From: a virus
Lineage: Duplodnaviria; Heunggongvirae; Uroviricota; Caudoviricetes
IMG/VR virus record: IMGVR_UViG_2534681737_000011
DNA length: 35,827 nucleotides
Reading direction: 5' to 3' (one strand)
Notes under the pieces: generated by a model
The model's input: only the letters and a program-made list of their open reading frames with translations
Database searches by the model: none
What the model was told of the DNA's origin: nothing
Program-made: the position numbers and the translations under genes
In this document: positions 3,031 to 26,600 of the stretch, piece by piece
Position numbering within the stretch: the first letter of the stretch is position 1
Layout of the letters: each line of letters starts with the position of its first letter

Positions 3031-3052
3031 ATGATCATGAAAGGTATTGGTT

Positions 3053-3754: not shown

Positions 3755-3789
3755 GTTAGGTCAACCCTTTGGCGTCTTGTCAAGGGGTA

Positions 3790-3818: not shown

Positions 3819-3874
3819 TATCGCACTTGACAATTTTGAACCTATTTGACCTAGATTTGTAAAGAGGATGTAAC

Positions 3875-4207: not shown

Positions 4208-4296
4208 TAAATTTCTATTATAAATAAAATTGTTCCGGTGGTGATGCCGGAACTAGGAGGACCAAATCATTAAACCGTTTAAGGGGAATTAATACT

Positions 4297-5109: not shown

Positions 5110-5117
5110 TAATTTTT

Positions 5118-5143
5118 AGCCTCGCCTAGTGCGGGGCTTTTTC
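5118..5143 (+). terminator. rho-independent terminator after the Rha-like gene
   Basis: AGCCtCGC-ctagt-GCGGgGCT hairpin followed by TTTTT. Confidence 0.6.
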
Positions 5144-5157
5144 ATGCCTACAGATAC

Positions 5158-5181
5158 AAAAAAGCCACTCCGAAGAGTGGC
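5158..5181 (-). terminator. rho-independent terminator for the minus-strand 5190..5423 gene
   Basis: GCCACTC-cgaa-GAGTGGC hairpin preceded on the plus strand by AAAAAA, which is a U-run on the minus strand. Confidence 0.55.
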
Positions 5182-5189
5182 AAAGAGAA

Positions 5190-5423
5190 TCAAAAACCTG
5201 TTGCTTCTACGATCTGACCATCACCGATCTGAACATAGAATTTAATGTCTAACTTCTTCATATTCTTATAGAATTGGGCGATTGAGATCCCATGTTCACT
5301 AAGAATCTGTTCTTTCGATTCCTTACCGCGATCCGCTGTATAGTAAGCGTAGGCAATATCAGCCATCTGTTCTTGAGTGAATCGGCAAGGGCGACCGCGA
5401 GTAGCTTTAGTAGTCATAGTCAT
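5190..5423 (-). CDS. small putative DNA-binding protein (GRP motif plus helix-turn-helix-like segment)
   Basis: N-terminal TRGRPCRFTQEQ followed by an HTH-like ILSEHGISIAQFYKNMKK; paralogous to 1716..1898. Start may be the second ATG at 5417, which has better GGAGA spacing. Confidence 0.55.
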   Translation of the reverse strand: MTMTTKATRGRPCRFTQEQMADIAYAYYTADRGKESKEQILSEHGISIAQFYKNMKKLDIKFYVQIGDGQIVEATGF

Positions 5424-5451
5424 TTCTCCAAATTAAAGTGAATGTTCACCT

Positions 5452-6054
5452 TTATTTAGAGGACTTACATTTTATAGGAAAAAGTTCTCCATCGTCAACC
5501 GACATAAAGAACTCTGCTTTGATCCCGTACTGCCTCAAGCGTGAATAGTATGTACCTCGACTTATATCAACCTTGCGAAGCACTTCAAAGAACCCTTTAG
5601 GATCGTTGTAATAGTGGCTATATCGCACGTTAGCGAGTTCAACGAATAGTTCCCTTGTATCACCATATCCTTTCTTAAAAGCCTCGTTACGATAGCGTGT
5701 AACAGCGTGATTTAGCCTTTCATGCTTAAACACTTCCCTTAGTGGCTTCCATTGCAACCGATAGATCGGACCATCGTCGATTCTGTAAAACCGCTTAATG
5801 TCAAAATCAAACCAATCTCGGACTCTCCGAAACTCTGTATGTGATGTTCTATGCTTCTTAAAGAAGTTGTGAACGTCTGTATAACCATTATCACGGTAAA
5901 ATTCTATTAAAATCTCTTTCGCTTCCTCACGGCTAAAACCAGAAGTGGTTATATCTGTTTTTAAATGCTTATGCTTAACTGGTAAACGATATTCATGATC
6001 GGTACAAGACAAGGCTAATTCTAATTCATCTCTTTGTTGCTGATTAATTAGCAT
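5452..6054 (-). CDS. hypothetical protein with C-terminal HTH-like motif (ISRGTYYSRLRQYG)
   Basis: 200-aa ORF with AGGAGG ribosome-binding site (plus-strand CCTCCT at 6059-6064); the C-terminal motif resembles resolvase or homing-endonuclease type HTH; no catalytic motif recognised. Confidence 0.5.
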   Translation of the reverse strand: MLINQQQRDELELALSCTDHEYRLPVKHKHLKTDITTSGFSREEAKEILIEFYRDNGYTDVHNFFKKHRTSHTEFRRVRDWFDFDIKRFYRIDDGPIYRLQWKPLREVFKHERLNHAVTRYRNEAFKKGYGDTRELFVELANVRYSHYYNDPKGFFEVLRKVDISRGTYYSRLRQYGIKAEFFMSVDDGELFPIKCKSSK

Positions 6055-6141
6055 ACAACCTCCTTAAATCTTAATACCCGTATTTATTAAAAAATCAACA
6101 ATTTACTAAATACTCTCATATTTCGTAATGAGGGTAATTAC

Positions 6142-8049
6142 ATGAAACTGATTTCTAATAAGGCAAAATTAAAAAAGATTCTCAGAAATGCAGCCAAATA
6201 TATTACGCCACCTCCTAAACTCCTTCCGTCTGAATGGTGCGAAGCGAATATGGTGCTGGTAGATGGTCCTCAAGCGGGGGATAAAGTTAAATTGTTGTCA
6301 TTCCAAAAAGGCATGATTGATGCACCTTTCCTTGAGAACAAGAAAAAGTATGTCCTGATGACCAGTGCGCAGATCGGAAAAACTACCATCTTGAACGGCA
6401 TCCTGTTTAACCAGATGGCTAACGATCCATGCAATATGATTATCGGACAATCAACCGCTAAAGAAATGTCTCAATATCTCGCGGGTAAGATCCGACCGTC
6501 TATCGAAGCATGTGATGCATTAAAAGACGTGGTTACAGACAAGAATGATCGTAATGCGGTTAACAACAATAACCAACTCCAGCTAAAAACGAATCACTTC
6601 CTGTACATGGTATCGCTTACCAGTCCATCAACCCTACGTGGTAAGACCGCAAAGGTTGGATTGCTTGACGAAATCGATGCTGCTACAGCCTCAGAAGAAG
6701 GTGATCCGGTGGCACTGGCTGCTAACCGTTTAACTACTTTTGGAGATGAGGGTCGATTAGTCGTATCCAGTACCCCGACCAGTAAGCTGGGAAGCATTAA
6801 CCAGCAATGGTTATCAAGCGATATGCGTATGTTTTTTGTTCCGTGTCCTCATTGCGGTAGACACCAGGTGATCGAGTGGGAAAACGTTCAATTTGAATGG
6901 CGTAACATCGATGGTAAGAACTTACCCGATCCTGATACCGCTCGTTATATTTGCCCTCACTGTAAGCAATCATGGACAGAAGGGGAACGAATCAGGGCAG
7001 TAGCGCAAGGCGAGTGGAGAGCAACCCGTGAAAGTGAAGTAGCAGGATTCTGGATCAGTCGTCTATATTCACCTTTCAGCACGATCCGCGCTTGTGTGGT
7101 TGATTTTAGTCATGCGTGGCAATCCTTTGATTTACAATCATTTTATAACACCGTATTAGGTAAGGTGTACGACGATCAGGACACGGCAGTAGAAGCAAAT
7201 GAACTGGAACAACTCAAAACAGATGTTTCTATCGAGAATATCCCAGATGACGTGATTTTCTTGTGCTCAGGAATTGACCAACAATTAGACCGCGCAGAAT
7301 CTACCATCTTAGGCGTAGCGAAAGATAAGGTTTACATTCTGGATCACCGCAGCTTTTACGATCATAACTGTGAACGATATGAATCACCTGTTTGGGATCG
7401 TCTGGTTAACTTCAAGAAAACCAAATTCTATAACGTTAATGGTGAACGTGTGCCAATGCTCGCCAGTTTCCTTGATACATCGAACGGTCGATTCACTCAA
7501 GCCGGATACCGTATTTGCGGCAAGTGGAAGAACCTACACGCGATCAAAGGTAGTTCGTCTGGTAATGCTCCAGTGATTCCGGTTAAACCTACCCGCACAG
7601 GTGGTCATGAATTGCTTATGCTGGGTGTTAACGTTGGGAAATCCGCTGTTCGTGAAATGTTGGTTAGAAACCTGAAAGACAATCCTCACATCGGCTTAGA
7701 AATATCAGAAACCGTTCCTGATGATTATCTCGATCAGCTTTTGAGTGAATCCATCAAGCGTACTACTACTGGCGTGCGTTGGGTGAAAAATCCAGGTAGT
7801 ACCCGAAACGAGGCTCTCGACTGTCTGGTTTATAGCTATGCTGCTTCTCGCTACGTTCTTTCAAAAATGTCATGGGATAAACTCATTGCAATGAAAGACA
7901 GCTTAAACCGTGTTGTCGAAGAATCCGTAGAAGCTCCTAAAACGCAATCTGACGAGCAAATCGAAGAAACTAAGCCAATCACACGACCACAACGTCAAAA
8001 CATCGCCAGACGCCCAAATAGAGGCCGTAGCTGGGTAACATCGTTCTAA
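6142..8049 (+). CDS. terminase large subunit, lambda GpA-like
   Basis: Walker A (SAQIGKTT) and Walker B (VGLLDEID) motifs; C-terminal region with CPHCG ... CPHC metal-binding motifs typical of GpA-type terminases; lies directly upstream of the portal gene. Confidence 0.85.
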
Positions 8050-8055
8050 TAACTC

Positions 8056-8074
8056 GCCGTCCTTCGGGGCGGCT
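8056..8074 (+). other. UUCG-loop hairpin after the terminase gene
   Basis: GCCGTCC-ttcg-GGGCGGC; only a weak U-tract follows, so termination is uncertain. Confidence 0.4.
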
Positions 8075-8121
8075 TACTCCTAAATATTGTTAATCCAATA
8101 ACAATTAAATAAGGGGTAATT

Positions 8122-8616
8122 ATGAGTTTAGAACTAATTCCCTTAGTAATTCGTAAAGGCGAAAAAGTCACGCTGGCGAATGAAGAGGGTGTAACAATTC
8201 AGGTAGGAAATAGTAAAGGTATCATTTATCAGGTTGATGATACTCCGGCTAATCATGAGATTAAAACTCTCTCGTTCGAGATAGGTAAATATACCATCGT
8301 AATAACTTTGGAAGAAGAACTGGTATCAATGCAGGAATTAACTGTATTGCCAGTCTTTGCCAAACAATCCAAAAAAGAATATCTGCGGGAAACTATCGCC
8401 TTAATCGAGCAAGTTATTTTCGCCCGTTTATCTGGGGACGAAGCCGCATTATCTGCAATGACAATAAAAGGGAACTCATTCGCCTATGAGTCATTGGGTG
8501 TTCTCCAGCAATTGAAGACTGATTATGAACGTCAGTTATCTAAATTAATTCAAGCCGAACGACGTAAGCAGGGAATTAGCCCGATTAAAAATATCAAATT
8601 ACGTCTTACGCGATAA
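8122..8616 (+). CDS. hypothetical protein between terminase and portal
   Basis: 164-aa ORF with AAGGGGTAAT ribosome-binding motif; function not recognisable. Confidence 0.55.
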   Translation: MSLELIPLVIRKGEKVTLANEEGVTIQVGNSKGIIYQVDDTPANHEIKTLSFEIGKYTIVITLEEELVSMQELTVLPVFAKQSKKEYLRETIALIEQVIFARLSGDEAALSAMTIKGNSFAYESLGVLQQLKTDYERQLSKLIQAERRKQGISPIKNIKLRLTR

Positions 8617-8626
8617 GGGGTAAATC

Positions 8627-10138
8627 ATGTTTAATCTTTTTCGACGCAATAAGGCGGTAGAAACTCCAGTTAAAACTAATCACCGCCAGCAACAACCAAA
8701 AATTTTCATCGATAAGCAAGTAGAAAAATTCCAGAAAGACCTATCTAAACGAAGTTTAGGTCTGGTTGGTGATCGCATTGATGGATCGCTTCAACAAGAC
8801 ACCATTACCGGAACCTTCAATAAGGCTCTCAAATCGAACGGTAAGCGCCTTTATGATCAGGGTCGTACTCTGGCTATAAACAATGCTGTAGGCAAGCGAT
8901 ACAAGCAGTATATCGTTGACCAAGTTGTTGGTACGGGGCTTGATCCGAAACCATCAATCGTTAAATCAAATGGCAAACTTGACACCGCACTGAATAAGCA
9001 GATCGAGAATGCTTTCTGGAAGTGGGCGCAGAGTGCTAAACGCTTCTCTCGCAACGGTCGCTTTAACTTCCGTGAAATGCTGGCAATGGCAGAATCTGAA
9101 CGTGTTCAGGGTGGAGAATGCTTCATCGTTTTAACCAAAGAGAACAATGAGTTACAAGTTTCTATTCTGTCTGCTGATAGGTGCGACTGGTCGCTTAGTC
9201 GTGAAATAAGCAAAGAACGTGCGATCTATCAGGGGATTGAGTATGACGTAGACACAATGCGCCCTGTAGCATACTGGTTTAGAAAAATCAATCTACTGAC
9301 TCAGACCTACACTGGCGAAAATTATCGCGTAGATGCTTCTCAGGTGTGCCACTACTACCAGCCACTGTGCGCGGAAAGTTTACGTGGTGTGACTGACTTC
9401 CTGCCAGTGATTAAGGATATTGCGCATCAAGAAGCGTTCCGCGAAACCGCGATCGTCCAGAAACGTATTGCAGCTAGCTCTATGGGCTTTATTGAACGTC
9501 CGAAAGATTCTGGTGACGATTTTGATACTGGTGAAGAGGATGAACAATATCAAGCGCCGGAAGTAGTACAGGACTTTGCACCGGGTACTATTCAGGAATT
9601 GCCGGAAGGGGCAACGATCAAGAGCATCCAGGCGACGCAAAGCGGTGATGATTTCAATTCCTTCAATGATGCGATGTTTACTAGCGTATCAATGGGCTTA
9701 GGCGTGTTCAAACAGGGCTTAACAGGAGATTGTTCACAGATCAACTACTCAGCCGCACGTTTTGGGGAACTAACCCAGCGTAACCGCATTAAAGCACTGC
9801 AAAACAAATTGATTGAAACAGTGGTATTGCCAATTTTTGAAGCATATCTACGCCATTATTCCGCGCGTGGTATTGTTCCGATTCGTATTACTGCAATTCC
9901 GCATATTATCGATAATACAACTATTATTCGTCCGCGTTTTGAATCCGTCGATCCTATTAAAGACGTAAACGCCGAGATTGCTTTAATTCAAAATGGTCTT
10001 AAATCACGTACTGCCGTTATATTGGAACGTGGTGATGATCCTGAAAAAGTATTCTCAGAGATTCAAGCCGAAAAGAGCGCACTAAATATTATCGTTAATG
10101 GCGAGGGTGAAGAAAAAAATTCCCCAGCCGATCCCTAA
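8627..10138 (+). CDS. portal protein (lambda-like)
   Basis: 503-aa ORF immediately after the terminase region and before the protease-capsid gene; size and position fit a portal; acidic C-terminal tail. Call rests mainly on synteny. Confidence 0.7.
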   Translation: MFNLFRRNKAVETPVKTNHRQQQPKIFIDKQVEKFQKDLSKRSLGLVGDRIDGSLQQDTITGTFNKALKSNGKRLYDQGRTLAINNAVGKRYKQYIVDQVVGTGLDPKPSIVKSNGKLDTALNKQIENAFWKWAQSAKRFSRNGRFNFREMLAMAESERVQGGECFIVLTKENNELQVSILSADRCDWSLSREISKERAIYQGIEYDVDTMRPVAYWFRKINLLTQTYTGENYRVDASQVCHYYQPLCAESLRGVTDFLPVIKDIAHQEAFRETAIVQKRIAASSMGFIERPKDSGDDFDTGEEDEQYQAPEVVQDFAPGTIQELPEGATIKSIQATQSGDDFNSFNDAMFTSVSMGLGVFKQGLTGDCSQINYSAARFGELTQRNRIKALQNKLIETVVLPIFEAYLRHYSARGIVPIRITAIPHIIDNTTIIRPRFESVDPIKDVNAEIALIQNGLKSRTAVILERGDDPEKVFSEIQAEKSALNIIVNGEGEEKNSPADP

Positions 10139-10183
10139 TAACCAACGGGGGCGCAATGCCCCCAATTAATTAAAGGTGATTAA

Positions 10184-12190
10184 ATGCTTAAATTTCGCCG
10201 CGATCTTAACGGTTACGGTGGAGTTATTAACGAAGGGCATAACGATCAATACGAATTTGAAATTGCTTTCTCCAGTGAACAGCCGTATCAGCGCCAATTC
10301 TGGGATGAGCAAAATCAAGAGATGGTGGTACTAGATGAAATTCTGGTACATACACCGGAAGCGGTTGATCTGTCTCGTCTGAATAATAACGCTCCGTTGC
10401 TGTTCAATCATAATTTCGATAATCACATTGGTGTCGTTTGTAACGCTCGAATCGATGCGGATAACGTAGGCCGTGCTCTGGTTAAATTCTCTAAGCATGG
10501 CACTTTGGCTAATGATATTCGCAATAAAGTCATTGAAGGTACGATGGAAAAAATTTCTGTCGGTTATGACATTAAAGAATATCACATCGACTACACCAAA
10601 GGACAATTGATTGTTACTAAGTGGGCACCCTATGAACTCTCATTTGTCACCGTTCCCGCAGACGATACGGTCGGTTTAAATCGCTCTCTAAATACTATCA
10701 CAGTTAATTTGGAGGCTAAACGCGATATGACTAAAGAACAAATCGAAGAAATCAAAGAAGAACAAGAAGCCGCTCAGGTTGAAGAAACTCCGGTAGAAGA
10801 AAATAAAGAATCGGAAGTTGAAGAAACTCAAGAGCGCCAAGTTGAAGAGAATAAAGAAAATGAAAATCTCGAAGACGGAAAAGACGCTGAACATCCTGAA
10901 AGTGTTGATGATGATAGTTCAACTGTTCGGGAAGAAGAAGAAGTAAAAGAAGAACGTGAAGCCGCTCCGGTTGAAGAAGAAAAAATTGAAGTGGCTGAAC
11001 GTTCCGAAGAAGACGAATTAGAAATTCGCGAAATTGCACGCGAACTAAATATTAACGAAGACGATGAAGAATTTAAACGCGCATTGACAAATAAAGAAAT
11101 TACGCCGGAAGCATTCCGCACTAAGGCACTAAATAATCTCGTCAATGCTCAACGTAATAACGAACAAATTAATAAGGAACAAATCATGGAAAAAACTTTC
11201 GATCTTAATAACGTAATCCGCTCCCTGGTAGATGGCGACGTGCTCGGCGCTAACGAAGCTGAATATTCCGCTATGGCTGCTACTGCAACTATGCAGCGTG
11301 GTCGTGCTGCTCGTGGTGGCTCTGTATTCGTTCCGGCTGCTGCTATGCGTGCTGCTGCTGCTGGTAACACCAAAGCTGACCTGACTGCTATCACCGACGA
11401 AAAACTGCTGACTGAATCCTACATCGAAATGCTGATGCCGGAATCCGTTCTGGGTCGTCTGGGTGTGACTGTTTACAGTGGCTTGACTGCTCCGACCGCT
11501 ATTCCAAAAATGACTAAATCCAGCGTTGACGCTTTCGGCTTCGTTGATGAAAACGGTGCTGCACCGGAAGGCAAAGCTGAATTTGCAAACGTGAAACTGT
11601 CTCCTAAGACTTTTGCTGGTGGCAACCCGATCAGCCGTCAGAGCATTAAAACCGTTCCGGGTATCGCTACCCTGATCACTGATCACATCAACCAGGCTGT
11701 TCGCATCAAACTGGAACAACTGATTCTGTCTGACAAAGACAATGAGCGCGGTCCTGCTGGTCTGGTTAAACAACTGGTTGATGCAAGCCGTGTTACTAAG
11801 AAAGCCGCTTTCAGCTACAAAGACTTCCTGAAAGAAATTGCAGCACTGACCGACGCTGGCGTTCCTGCTCAGGCGATCAAGTTTGCGATGAGCGGTGCAA
11901 CTGCTGCTGAACTGGAATCTACCCTGAAAGATAACGGTGTTTCCGGTTATATCATCGAAAACGGCAAACTGGCTGGTTACGATGTAGTTACTTCTGGTGT
12001 TATCCCGGCAGATCACATCGTTCTGGGTGACTTCTCCGGTATTACTATCGGTGAGTGGGGCGGTCTGGAACTGGATATGGACGACACCACCTACCGTGCA
12101 CAGTCCGCTATCGTTCCGCGTATCTGGGTAGATCTGGACTATGTTGTAACCCAGCCGGAAGCTCTGAAAGTTCTTCACATCTCCGAATGA
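10184..12190 (+). CDS. fused prohead protease / acidic scaffold-like linker / HK97-fold major capsid protein
   Basis: N-terminal about 170 aa match the HK97-type prohead protease pattern (LLFNHNFDNHIG ... SVGYDI ... ELSFVTVPADD); Glu-rich low-complexity segment at about 10730-11070; C-terminal about 330 aa capsid-like. Ends in TGA-A. Confidence 0.75.
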   Translation: MLKFRRDLNGYGGVINEGHNDQYEFEIAFSSEQPYQRQFWDEQNQEMVVLDEILVHTPEAVDLSRLNNNAPLLFNHNFDNHIGVVCNARIDADNVGRALVKFSKHGTLANDIRNKVIEGTMEKISVGYDIKEYHIDYTKGQLIVTKWAPYELSFVTVPADDTVGLNRSLNTITVNLEAKRDMTKEQIEEIKEEQEAAQVEETPVEENKESEVEETQERQVEENKENENLEDGKDAEHPESVDDDSSTVREEEEVKEEREAAPVEEEKIEVAERSEEDELEIREIARELNINEDDEEFKRALTNKEITPEAFRTKALNNLVNAQRNNEQINKEQIMEKTFDLNNVIRSLVDGDVLGANEAEYSAMAATATMQRGRAARGGSVFVPAAAMRAAAAGNTKADLTAITDEKLLTESYIEMLMPESVLGRLGVTVYSGLTAPTAIPKMTKSSVDAFGFVDENGAAPEGKAEFANVKLSPKTFAGGNPISRQSIKTVPGIATLITDHINQAVRIKLEQLILSDKDNERGPAGLVKQLVDASRVTKKAAFSYKDFLKEIAALTDAGVPAQAIKFAMSGATAAELESTLKDNGVSGYIIENGKLAGYDVVTSGVIPADHIVLGDFSGITIGEWGGLELDMDDTTYRAQSAIVPRIWVDLDYVVTQPEALKVLHISE

Positions 12191-12325
12191 ACTAGCGTAG
12201 AACCTTCTGTACCTTCCCCCGATTTGGGGGAAGAAAATCTGATTCCATCTCAGGAAGAAGAATCCCAGACGGTTACGGCGAAAGCCACAGCTAAAAAGGT
12301 GGGACGTCCACCGAAAGCAAAATAA
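12191..12325 (+). other. stop-free in-frame extension after the capsid TGA (44 codons, ends ...TVTAKATAKKVGRPPKAK)
   Basis: Translated directly: TSVEPSVPSPDLGEENLIPSQEEESQTVTAKATAKKVGRPPKAK then TAA; same frame as the capsid gene; contains the 24-nt block at 12272-12295 that is identical to 18186-18209. Confidence 0.5.
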
Positions 12326-12330
12326 TAATT

Positions 12331-12357
12331 AGCCCTGCCTAACGGTGGGGCTTTTTT
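12331..12357 (+). terminator. rho-independent terminator after the capsid gene and its extension
   Basis: AGCCCTGCC-taac-GGTGGGGCT (two G-U wobble pairs) followed by TTTTTT; near-identical to the terminator at 18239-18267. Confidence 0.7.
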
Positions 12358-12387
12358 GTATGTAAATACTCCATAAAGGGGGTAACT

Positions 12388-12678
12388 ATGTTCAAATTAT
12401 CAGAATCACAATTATCAAGAATGTTTAAGAGTGCTCCTGTATTTGTGGTGGAAGGTGGTAAATCAATTCGTGCTTATCATGAAATTACTACTACCGACGA
12501 ATCAGGTGTAATGACAGAAACCGAATTTCTATTCTGTCGTGAGGGAGACTTAAAGCAAGGTGATATTGTCACAGTAGAAAACCAGCGTTTCAAAGTTCAA
12601 TACGTTAAGCGCAATGGTGACAATACTTGTGATTGCTTTATCACTTTAGCAGGGGGTACACATGCTCGCTACCGTTAA
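12388..12678 (+). CDS. small virion or head-tail joining protein candidate
   Basis: 96-aa ORF with AAGGGGGTAACT ribosome-binding motif, immediately downstream of the capsid gene; function inferred from position only. Confidence 0.5.
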   Translation: MFKLSESQLSRMFKSAPVFVVEGGKSIRAYHEITTTDESGVMTETEFLFCREGDLKQGDIVTVENQRFKVQYVKRNGDNTCDCFITLAGGTHARYR

Positions 12679-13084
12679 TAATATGCCGAGACTGAAAATC
12701 AAACGCGCCTTGCAAGATATTATCGAACAAGATTTAGGTCTGGCTTTAAACGTAGAACAAACTCAGCAAGGCTTTAGTGATGACGTGGTTTGTTGGATCA
12801 CCGGAATGAATGAGACTTACACTAGGGTCCGTGGTGGTAATGCAATGCAAGCTGAATGCGTTATCGAAATGCAATTATATTCTCAGATTCATGAAACCAA
12901 AATTCATGAGGGTATTTGCCAGATAATCCAGATTCAGCCGGATAACCCACGTTTTAAAGATTTGGGCTTCTCTATTTCAGATATCACTCCAGTAGCCTCT
13001 AATACCGATTATGACGCTGATTCTAGTGATGGGGGTATCGTTGGGACACTTAGTCTTAAATTTTCTTATCTAGCGCGTTTTTAA
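12662..13084 (+). CDS. small virion or head-tail joining protein candidate
   Basis: 140-aa ORF overlapping the previous gene by 17 nt with a GGGGGT ribosome-binding site; position suggests a connector or completion protein. Confidence 0.5.
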   Translation: MLATVNNMPRLKIKRALQDIIEQDLGLALNVEQTQQGFSDDVVCWITGMNETYTRVRGGNAMQAECVIEMQLYSQIHETKIHEGICQIIQIQPDNPRFKDLGFSISDITPVASNTDYDADSSDGGIVGTLSLKFSYLARF

Positions 13085-13093
13085 GGGGTAATA

Positions 13094-13927
13094 ATGAATA
13101 TTACACAAGATAACTTAGATATTTTCACTGGATCACATGTTGAAGTGTCGATCTCTAACCAGATAGACAATCAGGTCGACTTTTTCGATCCTAGCTTTAG
13201 TTCTATGGAGAACATCGCAGCATTCCCTACGCTAACCGAATCCACAGAGATAGAAACTCTGGAAGAGTACGATCAGGACGCTACGGGGAAACTTGCTGGT
13301 TATCGTAGACTGGAACCGACGACACTCACATTAAACCGTGTTCTTGACGATGAACATCAAGCAATGTTGATGAAAGCGGTAGAGGATAAAACACCTTTAC
13401 GCTTCCGTATGTTCTATGTTGTGAACTCTGGCTATAGTGCTGCTAACACTGGTTACTATGTCATCTATGATGCTTATGTCACTAGCCATAAAACACGAGG
13501 CGGTGATAACAAAGCTGTAACTATGGAATTCAAACTTGAACCAGATGGCGGGATTCTTGCAAGGGGTATAGCGACCGAGGGAAAACTCATCCGACAAGGG
13601 GATTTTGGCGTAGGCTCAGGCGTTAGCCCATTCACCGGACCTATTGATAGTGAATCTCTGACAGGAAACCGCTTTGTAACCTACAAAGGAACGGCTAGCA
13701 CTAACCCTTATGGTGCTGATACATCGTTAATTCATCTTCAAGCTAATGAGCATGGCGCATGGCAATTAACGTGTAATACTTCCGGTGCTCCACGTTTGCG
13801 GGTACGAAATATTCAGGACAACGGAAAATCGGAATGGATTAAAGTCTATACAACAAACGAGAAGCCTACGCCAGCCGAAATTAATGCGGTTGCTAAGACT
13901 GATAGAATCGACTTCGGGGAATACTGA
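13094..13927 (+). CDS. putative virion structural protein (unassigned)
   Basis: 277-aa ORF with AAGGGGTAAT motif; ends in TGA-T followed three codons later by TAA. Confidence 0.5.
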   Translation: MNITQDNLDIFTGSHVEVSISNQIDNQVDFFDPSFSSMENIAAFPTLTESTEIETLEEYDQDATGKLAGYRRLEPTTLTLNRVLDDEHQAMLMKAVEDKTPLRFRMFYVVNSGYSAANTGYYVIYDAYVTSHKTRGGDNKAVTMEFKLEPDGGILARGIATEGKLIRQGDFGVGSGVSPFTGPIDSESLTGNRFVTYKGTASTNPYGADTSLIHLQANEHGAWQLTCNTSGAPRLRVRNIQDNGKSEWIKVYTTNEKPTPAEINAVAKTDRIDFGEY

Positions 13928-13953
13928 TCACTTCTCTAAATAAAACATGACGC

Positions 13954-13986
13954 GGGGAGGTTAATTCCTCCCTTATTCCTGTTTTA
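13954..13986 (+). terminator. hairpin plus T-rich tract, terminator candidate
   Basis: GGGGAGG-ttaa-ttCCTCCC followed by TTATTCCTGTTTTA. Confidence 0.45.
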
Positions 13987-14001
13987 TAGTGAGGTGATTC
14001 A

Positions 14002-17000
14002 ATGGAGTCTATCCAATTTAAACGCACACAGACGGCTGGTAAAAAGCCAACGCCAGAACAACTGGCACAGGGTGAGGTAGCAATTAACCTTGCCGACCAC
14101 GTAATTTACACCAAAGACAAAAATAACGCAGTAGTTCAAATCAGCGTTTCCCCAGAAAGTCATAATGCTTTAAACACGAAAGTAGACAATAACAAGAAAA
14201 CTACTGATTCTACTATCGCGGCAAATAAAACCGAAGCTGCTAACGCTCTGGCTACCGCTAAATCTGAACTGAATAACACTATTAACACGAAAGATACAGC
14301 GACCAATAAGCGCATTGATGCTACTAACACCACTGTTAGTAACTTAACCCAGACAGTCACGGCAAATAAAACCGACGCTGACACCAAGATCAATAACCTT
14401 ACGGGGACAGTTGCGGCAAACAAATCAGCTATTGAAACTACCGTAGCGAATAACAAACGAGACGCGGACAATAAAATCTCAGCTTTAACCACTACGGTTA
14501 ATGACAACAACACCGCGATCAATAGCCGTGTTGATACCACTAACACCAATGTTAGCAATCTGACCAAAACCGTTACAGCTAACAAGTCTGATGCTGATTC
14601 CAAGATCTCCAGCTTAACGAGTACCGTTGCAGCTAACAAATCAGCCATTGAAACTACGGTAGCGAACAATAAACGCGATGCTGATACGAAGATCACCAAC
14701 TTAACCAACACTGTTAATAGCAACCATACCGCCATTAACAACAAGGTTGACCAGAATAAAACCAGCACAGATGCAGCGATTGCAGCCGCTAACAAGCGAA
14801 TTGATGGTATTGAAGGTAGCAACGATGCTCTTTACATCAAGAAGAACACAAATACCTATCATCACGGCTATCTGTTAACCAAAACAGCTAACTATTTTGA
14901 TGATGCTGGTGCTCGTAACCTTGATTATTTTGGTGCGTTTCGTCCGAACAATGCCGAAGGTTGGGGTAACTTAATCCTTAACATTCCTCATTCTGGCGGT
15001 AAAGCACACGGTCGCGGCTTTGAGTTCCATTATGGGTCTAGCTCATCTCAGGTTAAAACCTATGGCTTTGATAAGGACGGTAACAAGAGATTCAGCTATC
15101 GCATGTACCATGAAGGTGATAAGCCGACTCCTGATGAATTGGGTGTGTATAGTAAAGCCGAAGTTGATCAGATGTTCATCAAGAACGTTAGAATGACCGT
15201 TCCTTCTGGTGATGCTACTCGTGGATACTTCAAGATCGCAACCGCTACGATCCCACAGAATGGTCGAATGGTAATGCTTCGTATCTTCGGTGGTAATGGT
15301 TATAACGTTAACTCTTATGATCAGGTTGACTTTGTAGAAATTGTCATCCGTTCCGGTAACAATAACCCGAAAGGCGTTAGTATTGCTGCTTATCGTCGAA
15401 ATGCTCTGAACGTTCATCAAGTATTTGCGGTTAATACTTCCGGTGATAACTACGATATCTACGTTAACTACGGTCGTTACACCGATAACGTTATTGTCGA
15501 ATACGGTAAAACTGATGGCGTTACTCTGACAGTACATGATGTTCCTGAATTAACTCTCGTTAAACCTTCTGTTGGTGTTACCGATGCTCGTGTTATTACG
15601 ATGTTCAACACCGAAAACAAAGCCGGAACGTTGATGTTTGATAATAACGGTCAAGGAACGTATGATATTATCAGTCTGAATAACTCAACTGATACAAATA
15701 AAAAATATCTTCGTAAATTCCGTAGCAAATCAGCCGAAACAATTTGGCATGAAGTTGTTGAAGGTAGTGTCTATCGTTTAGCTACTGGTGTTACTGATAC
15801 AGCGGATCAATTAAAAATTGATTTTAATGGTGTTACTGTAAACCGCCTTTTTGTTAAGGGTAATAACGCTATTAGAATGGAACGCCGCGACGGGCAAAGT
15901 AACTATATCGAATTCTTTGATTATCGTTCTGGTGCTAATCGTCGTCAGGGTTATCTAGGTTATGGTGATGGTACTACTAACACTGTACAGTTAGTAAATG
16001 AATTAACGGAAGGTAATAACTCTGTAAGACTGGATGAGAACGGTCAAGTTTCATTATCCACTGGCAAAACAAAAATTGTGTACACAAACGGCGAATATGT
16101 TGCTGCATACGCTAACGCATTCCGTATGATTTACGGTAACTACGGTGCATTCTGGCGTAATGATGGTGGTAAAGTTTATCTTCTTTCAACTGCCGAAAAT
16201 GATAAATTTGGTGGCTGGAACGGCAACCGACCATTCATTTACGATTTGACTACTGGTAAAGTTACTTTAGGTGGTGATGGTAACGAGGGTGCATTAGTTC
16301 TCGAACGAGATAGCCGTGCTGCTCGATTTGCTGGTGATATTTACGTCGGTAAAGGAATGTTAACCTTTGATGCTGGTCGATTAAATTCTCGCGACTACTT
16401 CCGGTTTAACCATTGGGGCGATAGCAATAACGCTCGTGATAATATCTTACAGCTTGACGATAGCAAAGGTGCACACTTCACCACTGAACGTACTTTAGCA
16501 ACTGGTGCGATTAAAACTAAATTCTTCGGTGATTTAGAAGCTGCTGGACAAATTCGCTGGGGTAAAGGTACTGCAACTTCTACGTTTAATATTCGTGCAT
16601 GGGGCGCTGATGCTCGTAAACAAGTGTTTGAATGTGCTGATGAAAGCGGTTGGCACTGGTATACCCAACGTGCTGGCGGTCCTGGTACTGAATTAATCGA
16701 GTTTGCTATTAACGGTACTGTTAAGCCTAAAGCAATCCACACTGGAGGCAATATCACCCTGAATGGTGCTGATATTGAGTTTAAGCGCACTGGTAACAAG
16801 CATTTATGGTTTAGAGATCCAAACGGCTTAGAGTTGGGTCTGTTGTACTGCGATGATGCTGGTGTTATGCGTATGCGCGGTGAGAAACAAGCCGAAGTCT
16901 GGAAATTCGGCGGTAAGATGATTCACCTTGAAACGGGCACTGTATCCGGTGGCGGTAATGGTCTTATTCGTGGTAGCGTTGCTGGTGGTAGTTGGGCTAG

Positions 17001-17589
17001 CTGGCGTGATCGTGCTTCCGGTATTCAGGTCGACTGCCAGCAATCAACCGATTCCGCTCATAACATCTGGAAAGCAACCCATCAAGGTAAATATCATATC
17101 GCCGCAATGGGTGTACACGTTCCTAGCGGTACTATCGGTAACGCTCTTGTTCGTCTCCATGTTCATGATGCCGTCTTTGACTTTAACGCATCCGGTGACA
17201 TGACGGCAGGTCGTAACGGTAGCTTTAACGATGTTTACATTCGCTCTGACTCTCGTCTGAAAATTAACAAGGAAGAATTACAGGACGGTGCATTAGAGAA
17301 AGTAAACTCCCTGAAAGTATACACCTACGATAAAGTTAAATCTCTTTCTGATGACACGGTAATTAAACGCGAAGTAGGTATTATTGCTCAGGATCTGGAA
17401 AAAGTATTGCCGGAAGCAGTAGGTATTCAATCTACCGAAGATCCAGAACATCCAGAAGCAATCAAGACTATTTCTAACTCTGCTGTCAATGCTTTAATCA
17501 TCAAGGCTATGCAGGAAATGGATGCTAAGTATCAAGCTAAGATTGATGCACTGACTAAAGAATTAGCCGAACTCAAAGCAACTAAATAA
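14002..17589 (+). CDS. long tail fibre protein with C-terminal S74-type intramolecular chaperone domain
   Basis: 1195-aa ORF with GAGGTGA ribosome-binding site; N-terminal repetitive T/N/K/A-rich region with two tandem units of about 72 aa; C-terminal SDSRLK motif followed by a coiled-coil tail, as in self-cleaving fibre and tailspike chaperone domains. Confidence 0.8.
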   Translation: MESIQFKRTQTAGKKPTPEQLAQGEVAINLADHVIYTKDKNNAVVQISVSPESHNALNTKVDNNKKTTDSTIAANKTEAANALATAKSELNNTINTKDTATNKRIDATNTTVSNLTQTVTANKTDADTKINNLTGTVAANKSAIETTVANNKRDADNKISALTTTVNDNNTAINSRVDTTNTNVSNLTKTVTANKSDADSKISSLTSTVAANKSAIETTVANNKRDADTKITNLTNTVNSNHTAINNKVDQNKTSTDAAIAAANKRIDGIEGSNDALYIKKNTNTYHHGYLLTKTANYFDDAGARNLDYFGAFRPNNAEGWGNLILNIPHSGGKAHGRGFEFHYGSSSSQVKTYGFDKDGNKRFSYRMYHEGDKPTPDELGVYSKAEVDQMFIKNVRMTVPSGDATRGYFKIATATIPQNGRMVMLRIFGGNGYNVNSYDQVDFVEIVIRSGNNNPKGVSIAAYRRNALNVHQVFAVNTSGDNYDIYVNYGRYTDNVIVEYGKTDGVTLTVHDVPELTLVKPSVGVTDARVITMFNTENKAGTLMFDNNGQGTYDIISLNNSTDTNKKYLRKFRSKSAETIWHEVVEGSVYRLATGVTDTADQLKIDFNGVTVNRLFVKGNNAIRMERRDGQSNYIEFFDYRSGANRRQGYLGYGDGTTNTVQLVNELTEGNNSVRLDENGQVSLSTGKTKIVYTNGEYVAAYANAFRMIYGNYGAFWRNDGGKVYLLSTAENDKFGGWNGNRPFIYDLTTGKVTLGGDGNEGALVLERDSRAARFAGDIYVGKGMLTFDAGRLNSRDYFRFNHWGDSNNARDNILQLDDSKGAHFTTERTLATGAIKTKFFGDLEAAGQIRWGKGTATSTFNIRAWGADARKQVFECADESGWHWYTQRAGGPGTELIEFAINGTVKPKAIHTGGNITLNGADIEFKRTGNKHLWFRDPNGLELGLLYCDDAGVMRMRGEKQAEVWKFGGKMIHLETGTVSGGGNGLIRGSVAGGSWASWRDRASGIQVDCQQSTDSAHNIWKATHQGKYHIAAMGVHVPSGTIGNALVRLHVHDAVFDFNASGDMTAGRNGSFNDVYIRSDSRLKINKEELQDGALEKVNSLKVYTYDKVKSLSDDTVIKREVGIIAQDLEKVLPEAVGIQSTEDPEHPEAIKTISNSAVNALIIKAMQEMDAKYQAKIDALTKELAELKATK
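14320..14750 (+). repeat. two tandem copies of an about 216-bp coding repeat inside the tail fibre gene
   Basis: Protein units IDATNTTVSNLTQTVTANKTDADTKINNLTGTVAANKSAIETTVANNKRDADNKISALTTTVNDNNTAINSRVD and TTNTNVSNLTKTVTANKSDADSKISSLTSTVAANKSAIETTVANNKRDADTKITNLTNTVNSNHTAINNKVD; also visible at nucleotide level. Confidence 0.75.
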
Positions 17590-17596
17590 TAAAAGT

Positions 17597-17622
17597 CGGG
17601 GGACTAGTTCCCCCGTTATAAC
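17597..17622 (+). terminator. hairpin after the tail fibre gene, weak terminator candidate
   Basis: CGGGGGA-ctagt-TCCCCCG followed by TTATAAC, a short U-tract. Confidence 0.4.
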
Positions 17623-17645
17623 AAATTCAATTAAGGGGTAATTAT

Positions 17646-18122
17646 ATGTCTCAACAATTCAAAGATATTTTTACTGGTGGTCTGGTAAGTATGTTCTATC
17701 AAGCGGACACTACTAATGCCGATCTCTCGGCAGAAAGCTACGAAGAAATTAAAGAGTGTGCTGGTTTTCCTGAAACTGGTATCGAACGCGGTACTGTAGA
17801 AGTTAAATCCTTCTCTTCTCAGTATAACCGTAAACTGGTAGGGAAACTGAACGTTCCTGATCTGACTCTGACCGTTAACTACATCCCAGGTGATGCGGTA
17901 CACGCTAAACTGGATAAGGCAGCCGAAGATGGCACGCGTATTCAGATTAAGATTGAATATTATGTTGATGCTGGTAAGCAGACTGGTATTCGCACCGCTT
18001 TCAACGGCTTTATCTCTAAAGCGGCTATGCAGGGTGGCGATGAAGAAGTCGTAACTAAAGAATATACCTTTGCTGTTGATGGTGCTCCGATCAAACAGGA
18101 AGTGTTTACCGCTGGTGGTTGA
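17646..18122 (+). CDS. major tail (tube) protein, gpV-like
   Basis: 158-aa ORF with AAGGGGTAAT motif; segments (ADLSAESYEE ... GFISKA) recall the lambda gpV N-domain; lies directly upstream of the chaperone pair and tape measure gene. Ends in TGA-A. Confidence 0.6.
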   Translation: MSQQFKDIFTGGLVSMFYQADTTNADLSAESYEEIKECAGFPETGIERGTVEVKSFSSQYNRKLVGKLNVPDLTLTVNYIPGDAVHAKLDKAAEDGTRIQIKIEYYVDAGKQTGIRTAFNGFISKAAMQGGDEEVVTKEYTFAVDGAPIKQEVFTAGG

Positions 18123-18233
18123 ACTTTCGAAGAACAACCCCAGCCAATTCAAGATGAACCTACGGTGATTCCTGAAATTGAGGTTGTTACGGCGAAAGCC
18201 ACAGCTAAACGAAGCCGCAAGGCTAAAGATTAA
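18123..18233 (+). other. stop-free in-frame extension after the major tail TGA (36 codons, ends ...VVTAKATAKRSRKAKD)
   Basis: Translated directly: TFEEQPQPIQDEPTVIPEIEVVTAKATAKRSRKAKD then TAA; same frame as the tail gene; contains the 24-nt block at 18186-18209 identical to 12272-12295. Confidence 0.5.
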
Positions 18234-18238
18234 TTATA

Positions 18239-18267
18239 AGCCCTGCCTTAATGGTGGGGCTTTTTTA
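18239..18267 (+). terminator. rho-independent terminator after the major tail gene and its extension
   Basis: AGCCCTGCC-ttaat-GGTGGGGCT followed by TTTTTT; near-identical to 12331-12357. Confidence 0.7.
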
Positions 18268-18281
18268 TTGGAGTAATCAAA

Positions 18282-18788
18282 ATGGCAAATGTCGTTAAAG
18301 TTCCCGGCTGGATCGGGTCATCGGCTGTATCAGTGACGGGTAAGCGATGGATGAAAGAAGCATTAACAGCTTTAAAAGTTCCGGCTCCGCGTAATATGTC
18401 GGCAATGGCTGGTCGTGGTATGGATACGGTTGTTGCTACTGCTGCATGGTCTACCTCATTGGGTAATAACTGGGGTGTAACTGCTTCAAACTATCCAGTA
18501 ACTGACATGCGCGGTAAAGGATCTATGGAGAACCCCGAAAACGTGGGCGTAGGCCATCTGGTTGGCGTTATCGTTGGTCAATTCAATGGCGGTACTCCTA
18601 CTATGGCTGTATATCTCCAGAACGGTAGAGCGGGGAATATAACCGTTAATTTGGGTGGTGCTGCTGTCACTGTTCCTTATAACAGTATGCAAAGCGGTTT
18701 TCATTACTATTGGTTAAGCAATCCTCCGGCTGCTTTCCTCAATAACATTAAGAAGACTGGCACTAAGCAGACTTTGAAAATCTCTTAA
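18282..18788 (+). CDS. hypothetical tail-module protein
   Basis: 168-aa Gly/Ala-rich ORF with GGAG ribosome-binding site, between the major tail protein and chaperone genes. Confidence 0.5.
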   Translation: MANVVKVPGWIGSSAVSVTGKRWMKEALTALKVPAPRNMSAMAGRGMDTVVATAAWSTSLGNNWGVTASNYPVTDMRGKGSMENPENVGVGHLVGVIVGQFNGGTPTMAVYLQNGRAGNITVNLGGAAVTVPYNSMQSGFHYYWLSNPPAAFLNNIKKTGTKQTLKIS

Positions 18789-23193: not shown

Positions 23194-23613
23194 ATGCTAA
23201 AAACTAGGCTTATCACCGATTACATCAATTCTTTAATAGGTCAGGAGTTCGTTCAGGGTGAGAATGATTGCAATCTAATTGCATGTAAGATCATCGATAT
23301 TCTCGCTGGTACTGACCTATATAATTCTCTTTATAAAAAATATTCAACTAAAGAAGAAGGTTTGAAAATCTGCAAAGAATTAAGCGGGTATTCAAATATC
23401 CTTCAACCAATTAAGAAACATTTCAAATTAGTCACTGATGATTTACAGGACGGCGACTTACTGGTCACAGCCCACAAATTAGGAAACCGTAATTATTATT
23501 CCGTAGTTCCTCATTATTCCGGTTATGGCCTCGTTGAAGAAGATGGTATCTGGATGACCATTCCTGTTTCAGACATTGACTATGAACAAGTTTATAGATT
23601 CGGGGGTGAATAA
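23194..23613 (+). CDS. tail assembly protein, gpK-like (NlpC/P60-like Cys/His motifs)
   Basis: GGAGGT ribosome-binding site 8 nt before the ATG at 23194 (the 23038 start would overlap the previous gene); ENDC ... GDLLV ... H pattern suggests a papain-like NlpC/P60 fold. Confidence 0.55.
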   Translation: MLKTRLITDYINSLIGQEFVQGENDCNLIACKIIDILAGTDLYNSLYKKYSTKEEGLKICKELSGYSNILQPIKKHFKLVTDDLQDGDLLVTAHKLGNRNYYSVVPHYSGYGLVEEDGIWMTIPVSDIDYEQVYRFGGE

Positions 23614-26600
23614 TGGGATTTGAAGTATTGGTAGGCGCGGTTATTGCTGGTGCTTCGGCGGGGATGGCGGCAGCCGCAACATTTTCGGTTATGACCGCAG
23701 TCGCTATCGGTATGGCTGCTGGTGCAATGACTTTGATCGCTTCCACTGTAGGCGCACCAAAAACACCTAAAGTACAAAGCCCAGATAATGCGGTGACACT
23801 AGGAACATCAAACGATCCGAAAGCGGTGATACCAGTCGTTTTCGGTACTACCCGCACTGGCACAAACTGTGTTTACAAAGCAGTTTCTAAGCAAGAAAAC
23901 AATAAGCTAGTGCAAATCTTCTCTGTAGCCGAGGGTGAAATCGACCATTACAAAGCACTCTTTATTGATAATAAAAATGTTCTTGTTGGTAAGAACATGA
24001 CGATCCGTGATGGTATTCTCGATAAGGGCAACATTAAAGAAGAATATCGTAAAGTATTAGAAGTCGAGTTCCGCACGGGCAAGAATCCTAACACCGCTTT
24101 GTCGCTGGCAAAACGTCATTTAGGCTCAGACTGGACCGACGCTTTCAAGGGTAACGGCATTGCGACCATGTGTATTGTGTTACGTCGTGATGACAAATCT
24201 CTTGCTGCTGGTGTTGATATTCTCCAGCCAAATAGCCAGGTAGCAGTAGACGTTTGCGGCCTTAAAATCCGTAACCTTGAAACCAATGCTATTGAGGCTA
24301 GCACTAACGGCGTGGATCAGATTTTCCACTACCTAACAAATGAAAAATATGGCTTATCCGTACCAATTGAAAACATTAACGTTGATTCATTCCTGAAAGT
24401 ACGTAAACAAGTACGCCAGATGGATCTACATTCAAACGGTGCATGTGATCCGAACGCCAGCTTTAAAGAGAACTTGACTAATCTTATGCAGACTTTCGGC
24501 GGGGTGATGTTCGAATCCTTTGGACGTATTACGCTGAAACTGGATGCTCCTGATATTGTTAAGCATACCTTCAATGAAGACAATATCATGATGGGTAAGG
24601 TATCACTGAAAACAGGTGGCACTAACGGTTATTTCAATACCATTAACGCGATGTATCAAGAACCATCAATTGACTATTCAGAGCAAATGCTACGTTATCC
24701 GGCTGATGCTGAAAACGATGCTACTGTTCGCGCAGATGGTCGAATTATTGCTAAGGATGTAGAATATCGTTTCGTTAAGTCTAAAGATCAGATTGATAAA
24801 CTCGCGAGCATTGAGCGAAATAAATCTCGTATCACTCAGGTTATCAGCTTTATGACTACTGACGCATTCACTGCCGAAGTTTGGGATGTTATCAGCGTAA
24901 CCTATGATGAATTGAAGCTGAATAATTCCTTATGGCGTATTACTGCAATTGATCGCTCGATTGATTCTGGTATTGCTGGGATGATGACTATCACCGCCAC
25001 AGAATATAATTCTCAGGTTTATACTGACCTGAACTATGCGGCTAACCCAGATAACCGACCAAGTGGTTTACCGGATTCAATGACAGTACAGAAGCCTACT
25101 AATTTCAGGATTAAGGCAACTGGTGAGACGATTTACGGTAAAAACGTTACTTTGACATGGGACGCGCCGGAAGATTTTAACCGTTATGGTTTTCAGATTG
25201 ATTACCGTGTAAGCGGATCACCTAACTGGATTAAGCTGGGACAGACTTCACAGCAAATTTTTAGTGTCAATGCACTGGCTAAAGATCGTTCCTACGATTA
25301 CCGAGTTTGTGCTTTCGGTATCATCGCTCGATCCGATTGGGTAGAACTGGTTAACCAGAATCCGACTGTTACCTATGAATTGCCGACTCCGGTTATTCGA
25401 ATCAAAAATCAGGGTAGCACGCCTGGTACTTTCGAAGGCAATGATCTGATTATCGAATGGGAAAATCAGCAACAATTAGATGTTGAGATCAACGGTGAAA
25501 CTAACAAGTTTAGTGACCTGTTTGAAGCATACATTATCAAGGTGACTAACAAGGCTGGTAAGTCTATTCAGTACCGTACCCGCGATCCTGAATCATGGAC
25601 TTATACGCTTGATATGAACCAGTTTAACGGCCTTTCGCGTCAACTGACGGTAGAAGTATCAGCTAAGGGCTATAACAACTCAGAGAGCGCCCCAGCGCGT
25701 TTAGTGGCTATCAACCCACAACATAAGCCAATGAAAGGTTTTAGTGCGCGTGGTGGCTTTAATACTGCGTTTGTTAGCTGGGCGGATGACGTAGAACATG
25801 ACTATGCAGGGTCAATCATCCAGTATGCAACCGATAACACTTTCTCAGATGCAAGGGCGGTAAGCACGAATAGTGTTAGCCATACTTCCTTTGATTTGGC
25901 AGACGGTGATTATTATATCCGTGGTGCTCACTACGATATTTTCGGTATGGATGATGCTGTTTGGTCTGAACCGTATTTCATGCAAATGAAATCTACCATT
26001 AGCTGGGACGATCAGGACAAAGAAGCACTGGAAGACCTGATTGGTTTACAAGACCGCTTAGATGAAACTATCGCGGATGCTATTGCTCAAGCTGGCGCTA
26101 ATGCCGATGCTAAAATTGATGCAATGCATAAGCAAATCACTACCGAAACAGGGCAGACGGTCCAAGCCTCAGCCAATACCTTAAAGAGTCTGATTGCTAC
26201 CAGCGAGCAAGCTAGCTCCACTAAGATTGATCAGGTTAAAGCTGAACTGAAAGGCGATATCACCAAAGAAGTTAGTGCATCTGCTACTACCCTGAAACAA
26301 GCTATTGCTACCAGTGAAGCAGCAAGCGCAAGTAAGATTGACCAAGTTCGGGTAGAAATGGATGGCAAGATTGCTGGTGTGAATCAGGAAGCAGATGTAA
26401 AAATCGATGCTTTGAAGGGAACCATTAACAGCAAATATAATCTGGCGGTTAATGCAGATGGTCGCGTGGCTGGTATTCACATGAGCGCAACCAACGATCC
26501 GGCGCAACCGACGAGAATCATCTTTAATGCTGATAAAATTGCGGTAGCTCCACAGAACGGATCGGAAGTATGCCCGTTTGGTATCGAAGGTAACAAGGTT

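Follow-up and report, generated by a model that had tools for sequence, protein, structure and literature searches.

A gp37-type tail fiber gene in a temperate siphovirus-type element and its possible anchoring by a tail-tube paralogue

The tail fibers of T-even phages, T5 and Ur-lambda are the described systems that come closest to the one considered here, a long tail fiber gene and its neighbors in the Caudoviricetes record IMGVR_UViG_2534681737_000011 (35,827 nucleotides; this whole stretch is called the window below). The T-even fiber is a gp34-gp35-gp36-gp37 assembly on the baseplate. RB49 gp37 ends in a chaperone domain that cleaves itself off, after which a single molecule of gp38, the receptor-binding protein, caps gp37 (PMC9569957). 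Proteolytic processing of gp37 is also described for T2, and in RB49 g38 is displaced from g37, at 45367-46143 (PMC3157838). In S16, three conserved tryptophans of the N-terminal bundle of gp38 plug into the gp37 tip (PMC6851490). The L-shaped fiber of T5 is mounted differently, its subunit pb1 binding a separate Ig-like collar, p132, around the undecorated tube paralogue p140. In Ur-lambda, a 12-mer collar at the gpV/gpM junction is made by the N-terminus of Stf itself, and the trimeric fibers are tied by flexible linkers to ring-forming domains (PMC12617516). The Ur-lambda fiber has a separate chaperone, Tfa, and is historically related to T4 gp37.

Compared with these systems, the window combines a gp37-type distal fiber with a siphovirus-type tail. 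We propose that the open reading frame (ORF) at 14002-17589 specifies the distal subunit of a side (lateral) tail fiber made of three proteins, a fiber that would be anchored through a paralogue of the tail tube protein and capped by a gp38-like protein (gp38L). We regard this composite model, including the assignment of the host element to the temperate siphovirus-type prophages of Escherichia/Shigella, as somewhat probable. The fiber, its chaperone and its gp38-type partner all belong to well-described families or are variants of them. The tube-paralogue anchor with its gp36-type joint, as it emerges from sequence comparison, synteny and monomer structure models, seems to be a new form of side-fiber attachment in siphoviruses; no description of such an anchor was found in the searched literature. 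The features are collected in Table 1.

Table 1. Features of the fiber locus and of the rest of the window (residue numbers refer to the protein named)
Feature	Position	Strand	Remarks
Distal side-fiber subunit, gp37 homologue	14002-17589	+	ATG start; 1195 residues including the chaperone domain
gp37-type N-terminal joint domain	14002-14154	+	fiber residues 1-51
Inserted rod	14155-14868	+	fiber residues 52-289; no counterpart in Krischvirus gp37
16-nt exact direct repeat CGGCAAATAAAACCGA, left copy	14219-14234	+	
16-nt exact direct repeat CGGCAAATAAAACCGA, right copy	14360-14375	+	141 nt 3' of the left copy
216-bp repeat, copy 1	14296-14511	+	fiber residues 99-170
216-bp repeat, copy 2	14512-14727	+	fiber residues 171-242
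gp37-homologous shaft and tip, predicted mature distal part	14869-17244	+	fiber residues 290-1081 (~790 residues)
Gp34_trimer-type domain	16012-16242	+	fiber residues 671-747; Pfam PF21446, E 2e-25
S74 intramolecular chaperone	17245-17586	+	fiber residues 1082-1195 (114 residues); predicted cut before Ser1082
SDSRLK motif	17245-17262	+	fiber residues 1082-1087
Tail-tube paralogue with fiber knob and gp36-type C-terminal tail	13094-13927	+	277 residues
Canonical tail tube (major tail) protein	17646-18122	+	158 residues; phrog_158, E 9e-22
gp38-type adhesin-like protein (gp38L)	18282-18788	+	168 residues; two genes 3' of the fiber gene
Terminator-like hairpin after the tube gene	18238-18262	+	10-bp stem, 6 GC pairs, T-run
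Terminator-like hairpin after the capsid gene	12331-12352	+	nearly identical to 18238-18262
Fused protease/capsid ORF	10184-12190	+	668 residues
J-like tip protein gene	23613-27389		far from the fiber gene
UvsW-like helicase	29428-30927	-	UvsW_N, ResIII and Helicase_C domains
Large serine recombinase (integrase)	32890-34584	-	
AT-rich early-region stretch	2192-3287		~1.1 kb, GC about 0.36, few ORFs
tRNA-Gln call (ARAGORN)	12849-12939	-	91 nt, probably spurious

The distal fiber and its chaperone domain

The first-pass annotation, made from the sequence without database searches, had described the ORF as a long tail fiber gene, and the match of its product to phrog_1699 ('long tail fiber protein distal subunit', E 1e-141) bears this out. 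The ATG is preceded, 5-6 nt upstream, by the Shine-Dalgarno sequence GAGGTGA. At ~80% identity, nucleotides 919-3519 of the gene match gene 37 of the RB49-like T4-type myoviruses (Krischvirus), and in the protein residues 290-1192 are colinear with residues 71-970 of Krischvirus gp37, with 81% identity to PHB13 and 72% to RB49. The joint domain at the other end is 43% identical to residues 4-54 of RB49 gp37 and covers positions 6-51 of phrog_1699 (E 6e-20). It is the best-conserved block of the fiber among relatives (mean pairwise identity 0.93), and the N-terminus of the distal fiber is conserved across the window, the loci L005, L033 and L034, the record of Escherichia phage DCP80, and RB49. 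The colinearity of residues 290-1192, together with the match of residues 1-51, shows that the fiber is a complete gp37 homologue with ~240 inserted residues. The insertion, a rod that follows the joint domain, distinguishes it from the Krischvirus gp37. Within the shaft, the Gp34_trimer-type domain also matches the solved structure of T4 gp34 (4uxe, E 1e-16). Intact fiber ORFs of 1149-1207 residues are present in 22 relatives.

The annotation had further predicted an S74-type intramolecular chaperone from the SDSRLK motif near the C-terminus, a prediction on which profile, motif and fold now agree. The Pfam family Peptidase_S74 (PF13884) covers residues 1082-1140 with 51.6 bits against a cutoff of 22 (E 1.1e-13). 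In an alignment of residues 900-1195 with 29 homologues (33-87% identity), D1077, V1078, I1080, R1081, S1082, D1083, R1085 and K1087 are invariant, and S-D-x-R-L-K is retained in 22/22 family fibers. S1082 and K1087 correspond to the catalytic serine, at the predicted cleavage site, and the lysine five residues on. An AlphaFold2 (AF2) monomer model of residues 900-1195, with a predicted local distance difference test score (pLDDT) of 77, was used for a fold search by Foldseek. The model matched the MyRF ICA (7dc3) with a probability of 1.00 and a target TM-score (TMt) of 0.65, the GA-1 neck appendage (3gud) with a probability of 1.00 and a TMt of 0.53, and endosialidase NF (3gw6) with a probability of 0.99. 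T5 pb1 (4uw7) gave only a non-significant match, and the relation of pb1 to the window fiber is limited to the chaperone fold.

The extent of these relationships differs. The fold and the Ser-Lys motif are common to the window fiber and the chaperone domains of endosialidase, the GA-1 neck appendage and MyRF, but kinship with these proteins is confined to the C-terminal 114 residues. Among solved chains, the closest in sequence is that of S16 gp37, from the tip complex of gp37 and gp38 (6F45). With RB49-like gp37 and the S16/T2 tip, the window fiber shares whole-gp37 colinearity at 72-81% amino acid identity, the joint domain, the Gp34_trimer-type domain and the S-D-x-R-L-K chaperone. That the protein is a gp37-type fiber with an S74 chaperone is, in our judgment, very likely. 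The predicted cut raises a practical point: the R1081-S1082 bond is also a tryptic site, so that a tryptic peptide at the C-terminus is no proof of auto-cleavage.

The setting of this gp37 homologue is not that of a T-even phage. Beside the fiber and its partner genes, the window has neither a sheath gene nor genes for gp34, gp35 or a separate gp36, so that the fiber is not the gp34-gp35-gp36-gp37 baseplate fiber of the T-even phages. The tail is of the non-contractile type, with tape-measure and tail chaperone genes.

The tube paralogue upstream of the fiber gene

The gene preceding the fiber gene encodes a 277-residue protein that is 29% identical over 160 residues to the window's own tube protein (E 3e-16) and also matches phrog_158. 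Its AF2 model (pLDDT 77.8) consists of a tube fold and a knob, and residues 166-183 form a Gly-rich linker of low model confidence. The N-domain thus unites a tail-tube fold with paralogy to the tube protein of the same element. The knob domain is one that occurs in many fibers. The last 72 residues of the protein match the RB49 gp36 C-terminus from end to end (31% identity, E 2e-4), and a profile of 15 C-termini of such tube-fiber fusion proteins, compared with RB49 gp36 by hhalign, matches residues 463-496, to the very last residue, with a probability of 98% (E 1.9e-13). At the sequence level, both halves of a gp36-gp37 joint are therefore present, a proximal chain with a gp36-type end and a distal chain with a gp37-type start. 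Paralogy between the 277-residue protein and the fiber was considered as well and was ruled out, as BLASTP gave no significant similarity between them.

An ordinary homologue search with the C-domain of the 277-residue protein returned close partial proteins only, and an exhaustive representative search yielded 76 proteins. In the best 17 of these 76, the C-domain lies at residues ~150-275 behind a tube-like N-domain, in proteins of 278-1209 residues. Whatever their length, 16 of these 17 end in ..(I/L)D(F/L/A/E)G-x-x, usually with NKPT..(I/V)GA before it. Fusions of this kind are found in prophages of Rahnella, Hafnia, Obesumbacterium, Serratia, Pantoea, Atlantibacter, Enterobacter, Klebsiella, Citrobacter and E. 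coli, where they are annotated as 'hypothetical' or 'tail fiber protein'.

The gene order is the same in the window, L033 (Serratia), L034 (Rahnella-like) and DCP80, namely the fusion gene, a distal fiber with a gp37-type N-terminus, and the tube gene. The fusion and the distal fiber measure 277 and 1195 residues in the window (1472 in sum), 1209 and 490 in L033 (1699), 556 and 861 in L034 (1417), and 698 and 745 in DCP80 (1443). The S74 domain is present in the distal fibers of the first three and was not detected in that of DCP80. Across the four loci the summed length stays within 1417-1699 residues while the chain break shifts. In Enterobacterales prophages the break thus migrates, the fusion ranging from 277 to 1209 residues and the distal chain from 1195 to 490, with the ends constant.

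The assembly that we propose builds on the observed homologies and domain order, on the conservation of catalytic residues and synteny, and on co-occurrence. The three fiber chains would register and fold starting from the C-terminal chaperone, which would then cut itself off before Ser1082, with Lys1087 acting as the base. One copy of gp38L would dock on the exposed tip through its helical N-terminal domain, which bears the Trp residues, and add a receptor contact. At the opposite end, the tube domain of the 277-residue protein would form one ring of the tail tube. Three neighboring C-terminal arms, on flexible linkers, may trimerize and accept the fiber N-terminus via the gp36/gp37-type joint, and a hexameric tube ring would then carry two fibers. 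The place of the ring on the tail is hinted at in two ways: the gene order beside the head-completion genes points to the head-proximal end, and the analogy with T5 p140 (PMC10038345) to the distal end. A mounting of this kind on a non-contractile tail, by a ring of tube paralogues whose arms form the first fiber segment and end in a gp36-type joint for a gp37-type distal fiber with its gp38-type cap, would be new. On the sequences and models at hand, we consider the case for it evenly balanced.

The proposed anchor differs from both siphovirus precedents. In T5 the tube paralogue is undecorated and the fiber is held by a separate collar; in the window, knob and joint tail are built into the tube paralogue, and a collar gene is not seen. 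The Ur-lambda Stf/Tfa system resembles the window in being a dispensable-type side fiber on a temperate E. coli siphovirus, and its linker-tied trimeric fibers offer a parallel to the arms proposed here. Unlike the window fiber, Stf builds its collar from its own N-terminus and depends on a separate Tfa, and the stf gene stands after J and not before the tube gene. The tube-paralogue anchor, if true, would explain why the fiber genes lie before the tube gene, would offer defined junctions for fiber engineering, and would represent a natural plug-and-play adaptor between T4-like and lambdoid-like fiber pools. It would also be a testable case of how trimeric fibers are matched to a hexameric tube ring.

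Fiber-gene exchange between unrelated phages is classical. Within the prophage, DNA similarity to known phages is confined to the fiber gene, and a near-identity search of the phage collection with its flanks gave no match on either side. A 2.6-kb stretch that is ~80% identical in DNA between a temperate prophage and virulent RB49-like phages indicates a direct flow of host-range modules between them. The RB49-like phages concerned are used in therapy cocktails.

gp38L, receptor recognition and competing readings

The N-terminal part of gp38L matches the Pfam family Gp38_N (PF21721; E 4e-15, 56 bits against a cutoff of 25), and the full-length protein matches phrog_1121, 'tail fiber adhesin' (E 1e-34). 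Residues 9-48 are 55% identical to residues 6-45 of RB49 gp38, and W10, W23 and W64 align with W7, W20 and W64 of that protein; their correspondence to the tryptophans of S16 relies on PMC6851490. The gene of this gp38 N-domain homologue stands apart from the fiber gene, as g38 does from g37 in RB49. The closest phage relatives of gp38L are the 'tail fiber adhesins' of Shiga toxin (Stx)-converting phages, at 44% identity.

The distribution of gp38L follows that of the fiber. It is present in 25/25 close relatives that have this fiber and whose sequence reaches the position, and absent from one relative whose fiber was replaced. In four IMG/VR relatives (L022, L023, L024 and L026), fiber residues ~900-1054 have been swapped for unrelated sequence; the last 27 residues of the tip, the chaperone (96% identity) and gp38L are retained. 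This is what would be expected if the cap binds the extreme tip. Covariation of gp38L N-domain variants with the identity of the tip, judged by eye among the relatives, showed no clear pattern.

Receptor binding had been assigned in the annotation to the region of about residues 280-1000. This is too broad, as the stretch is the gp37 shaft and in RB49 and S16 it is gp38 that caps the tip (PMC9569957, PMC6851490). The assignment holds at most for the distal third, where residues 601-680 and 761-1040 are the most variable blocks among 21 distinct relatives. The receptor-binding part is probably the distal tip together with the gp38L cap, and not residues 280-1000 as a whole. Given these variable blocks and the conserved C-domain of gp38L, the distal fiber itself may have a direct role in recognition.

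Several observations weigh against the composite model. Unlike T-even gp38, gp38L is not hypervariable and its C-domain has no polyglycine sandwich: Gly stands at 14%, compared with 27% in RB49 gp38, and there are no G-runs longer than 2. The C-domain has no similarity to the C-terminus of RB49 gp38, and a PDB sequence search of gp38L gave no match. The C-domain is 94-100% conserved among relatives while the distal fiber is mosaic, and such near-invariance is not expected for a host-range determinant. The tube gene and a terminator-like hairpin stand between gp38L and the fiber gene, and more distant relatives with S74 fibers have no gp38L. As for the anchor, the KPT..GA motif also occurs inside fibers, so that part of the gp36 match may reflect a common domain boundary. 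The structure models are monomers with a pLDDT of ~77, and the attachment of trimeric fibers to a hexameric tube ring is plausible but unproven. Finally, the portal of the nearest cultured phage, the odd DCP80 record aside, is only 27% identical.

The features of gp38L would suit a single-protein fiber that is matured by its S74 domain and has its own receptor-binding site in the central or distal region, with gp38L being unrelated or accessory only. A self-sufficient S74 fiber tip has a precedent in T5 pb1. The variable distal blocks, the near-constant gp38L C-domain that lacks glycine-rich motifs, and the related prophages that have an S74 fiber and no gp38L all fit this possibility, which we nevertheless find unlikely. 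The tip is ~83% and the chaperone ~65% identical to those of RB49 gp37, which is reported to need its gp38 cap (PMC9569957). Moreover, gp38L has an attachment domain with the aligned Trp residues, and it co-occurs strictly with this tip type, even where all but the last 27 residues have been swapped.

Concerning the anchor, the 277-residue protein could be merely a decorated minor or alternative tube protein, like lambda gpV with its Ig domain or SPP1 gp17.1*, while the fiber uses its own N-terminus to attach to another site, such as the distal tail protein or the tip complex. C-terminal decoration domains are common on tube proteins (PMC12617516 for gpV), the knob, frequent in fibers, could be a simple adhesion module, and Stf of Ur-lambda makes a collar from its own N-terminus (PMC12617516). 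This explanation strikes us as improbable, given that the C-terminal tail is specifically gp36-like from end to end and that the next gene begins with a gp37 N-terminus, the partner of gp36 in T-even fibers. It would also have to accommodate homologues that extend the tube domain to fibers of up to 1209 residues with the same tail and a distal fiber next to them, in invariant synteny. Decay of the whole cluster, with the fiber no longer made in a cryptic prophage, would be in keeping with a lineage known solely from prophages and metagenomic viral contigs and with the insertion sequence (IS) elements or split fiber genes of some relatives. We consider it very improbable in view of the intact 1195-residue ORF with its Shine-Dalgarno sequence, the full-length ORFs in 22 relatives, the third-position substitution bias described below, which points to purifying selection, and the complete set of head, tail, lysis and recombinase genes in the window.

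The rod, the gene order and the host element

Two tandem repeats of ~72 residues had been noted in the N-terminal rod, and none after about residue 280. The repeats are confirmed. The rod DNA carries a direct, in-frame tandem repeat of 216 bp whose copies are identical at 156/216 nucleotides (72%) and 55/72 residues (76%). A scan of the protein against itself gave 49/60 identities at an offset of 72 and at most 19/60 at offsets unrelated to the repeat, and the duplication is therefore far beyond chance; the scan also agrees with the absence of obvious repeats farther on. The motif [AN]NKxDADxKIxxLTxTV occurs twice per 72-residue unit, at offsets of 29 and 43 residues. Third codon positions account for 38/60 nucleotide differences between the copies, and 27/44 differing codons are synonymous. 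This bias indicates purifying selection and an old duplication. The two copies are too diverged for Tandem Repeats Finder, which missed the 216-bp repeat; find_repeats detected it. The rod has a hydrophobic periodicity of 3.6 residues, contains no Pro and 2 Gly in 219 residues, and is rich in T, N, A and K. To judge from this composition, it is probably a trimeric coiled coil.

The repeats had also been proposed as a substrate for length variation by recombination, with a comparison of copy number among related isolates as the check. That recombination alters the length of the rod is supported, but for repeats other than the 216-bp units, which are old and diverged and constant at two copies. 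Their longest exact in-register run is 11 nt, neither one nor three copies were found in any of the 22 relatives examined, and all relatives of the 242-residue rod class keep both copies. The longest exact direct repeat in the rod DNA is instead the CGGCAAATAAAACCGA pair. The fiber of E. coli ETEC1738 lacks exactly 141 nt (47 residues), with the crossover inside this 16-nt repeat. A second class of relatives has a rod of 214 residues built on a different internal duplication.

The placement of the fiber gene had been described as lying between the head and tail modules, before the major tail gene and not after the tip protein gene. It does stand upstream of the tube gene, an order conserved in ~30 related loci, and at a distance from the tip gene; 'between head and tail modules' is only approximate, as the fiber gene is flanked by two tube paralogues. 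It lies inside a conserved unit of tube-paralogue (candidate anchor), distal fiber and tube protein genes, and not at a module boundary. The canonical tube protein matches the lambda-type tube families of Pfam only weakly, below threshold (best 24 bits against a cutoff of 28.4). It is annotated as 'phage tail tube protein' in the E. coli relatives, and its gene is directly upstream of the chaperone and tape-measure genes. The two terminator-like hairpins share the form AGCCCTGCC..GGTGGGGCT plus a T-run, and they bracket the connector, anchor, fiber and tube genes as one unit.

A complete temperate element of siphovirus type fills the window. Its head genes encode a lambda gpA-type terminase, a portal, a fused S78 protease/capsid protein and a gpFII-like protein, and its tail genes the tube protein, a tail chaperone pair, a tape measure, a distal tail protein and the J-like tip protein. 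Lysis and integration are represented by an M15 endolysin and the large serine recombinase. Relatives at 80-99% nucleotide identity are present in 58 complete E. coli genomes; in ETEC4090 a related prophage is inserted in ycdX, beside tRNA-Ser and curli genes. A general contig scan of genomes with the tube protein as query confirmed no locus. Leaving the DCP80 record aside, the lineage was found solely in prophages and metagenomic viral contigs.

That record (L032, PQ671644.1) is 141 kb long and classed as Gaprivervirus (T4-like). Its positions 1-18560 correspond to the siphovirus-type head-tail module of this prophage lineage, with terminase, portal, protease-capsid, tube-fiber fusion, fiber, tube and tape-measure genes. 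The record may be a chimeric assembly.

Some further features of the window were observed. No RNA family of Rfam matched anywhere in it, the AT-rich early-region stretch included, and NCBIfam assigned no family to any of six window proteins tested. The ARAGORN call of a tRNA-Gln lies inside a 140-residue ORF of the opposite strand and is probably spurious, being over-long and without Rfam support. The fused protease/capsid gene is a single ORF in which an S78 prohead protease domain is joined to an HK97-type capsid domain by a long, acidic, Glu-rich linker. The UvsW-like helicase, here in a temperate prophage, is the second window gene with T4-type affinities besides the fiber gene.

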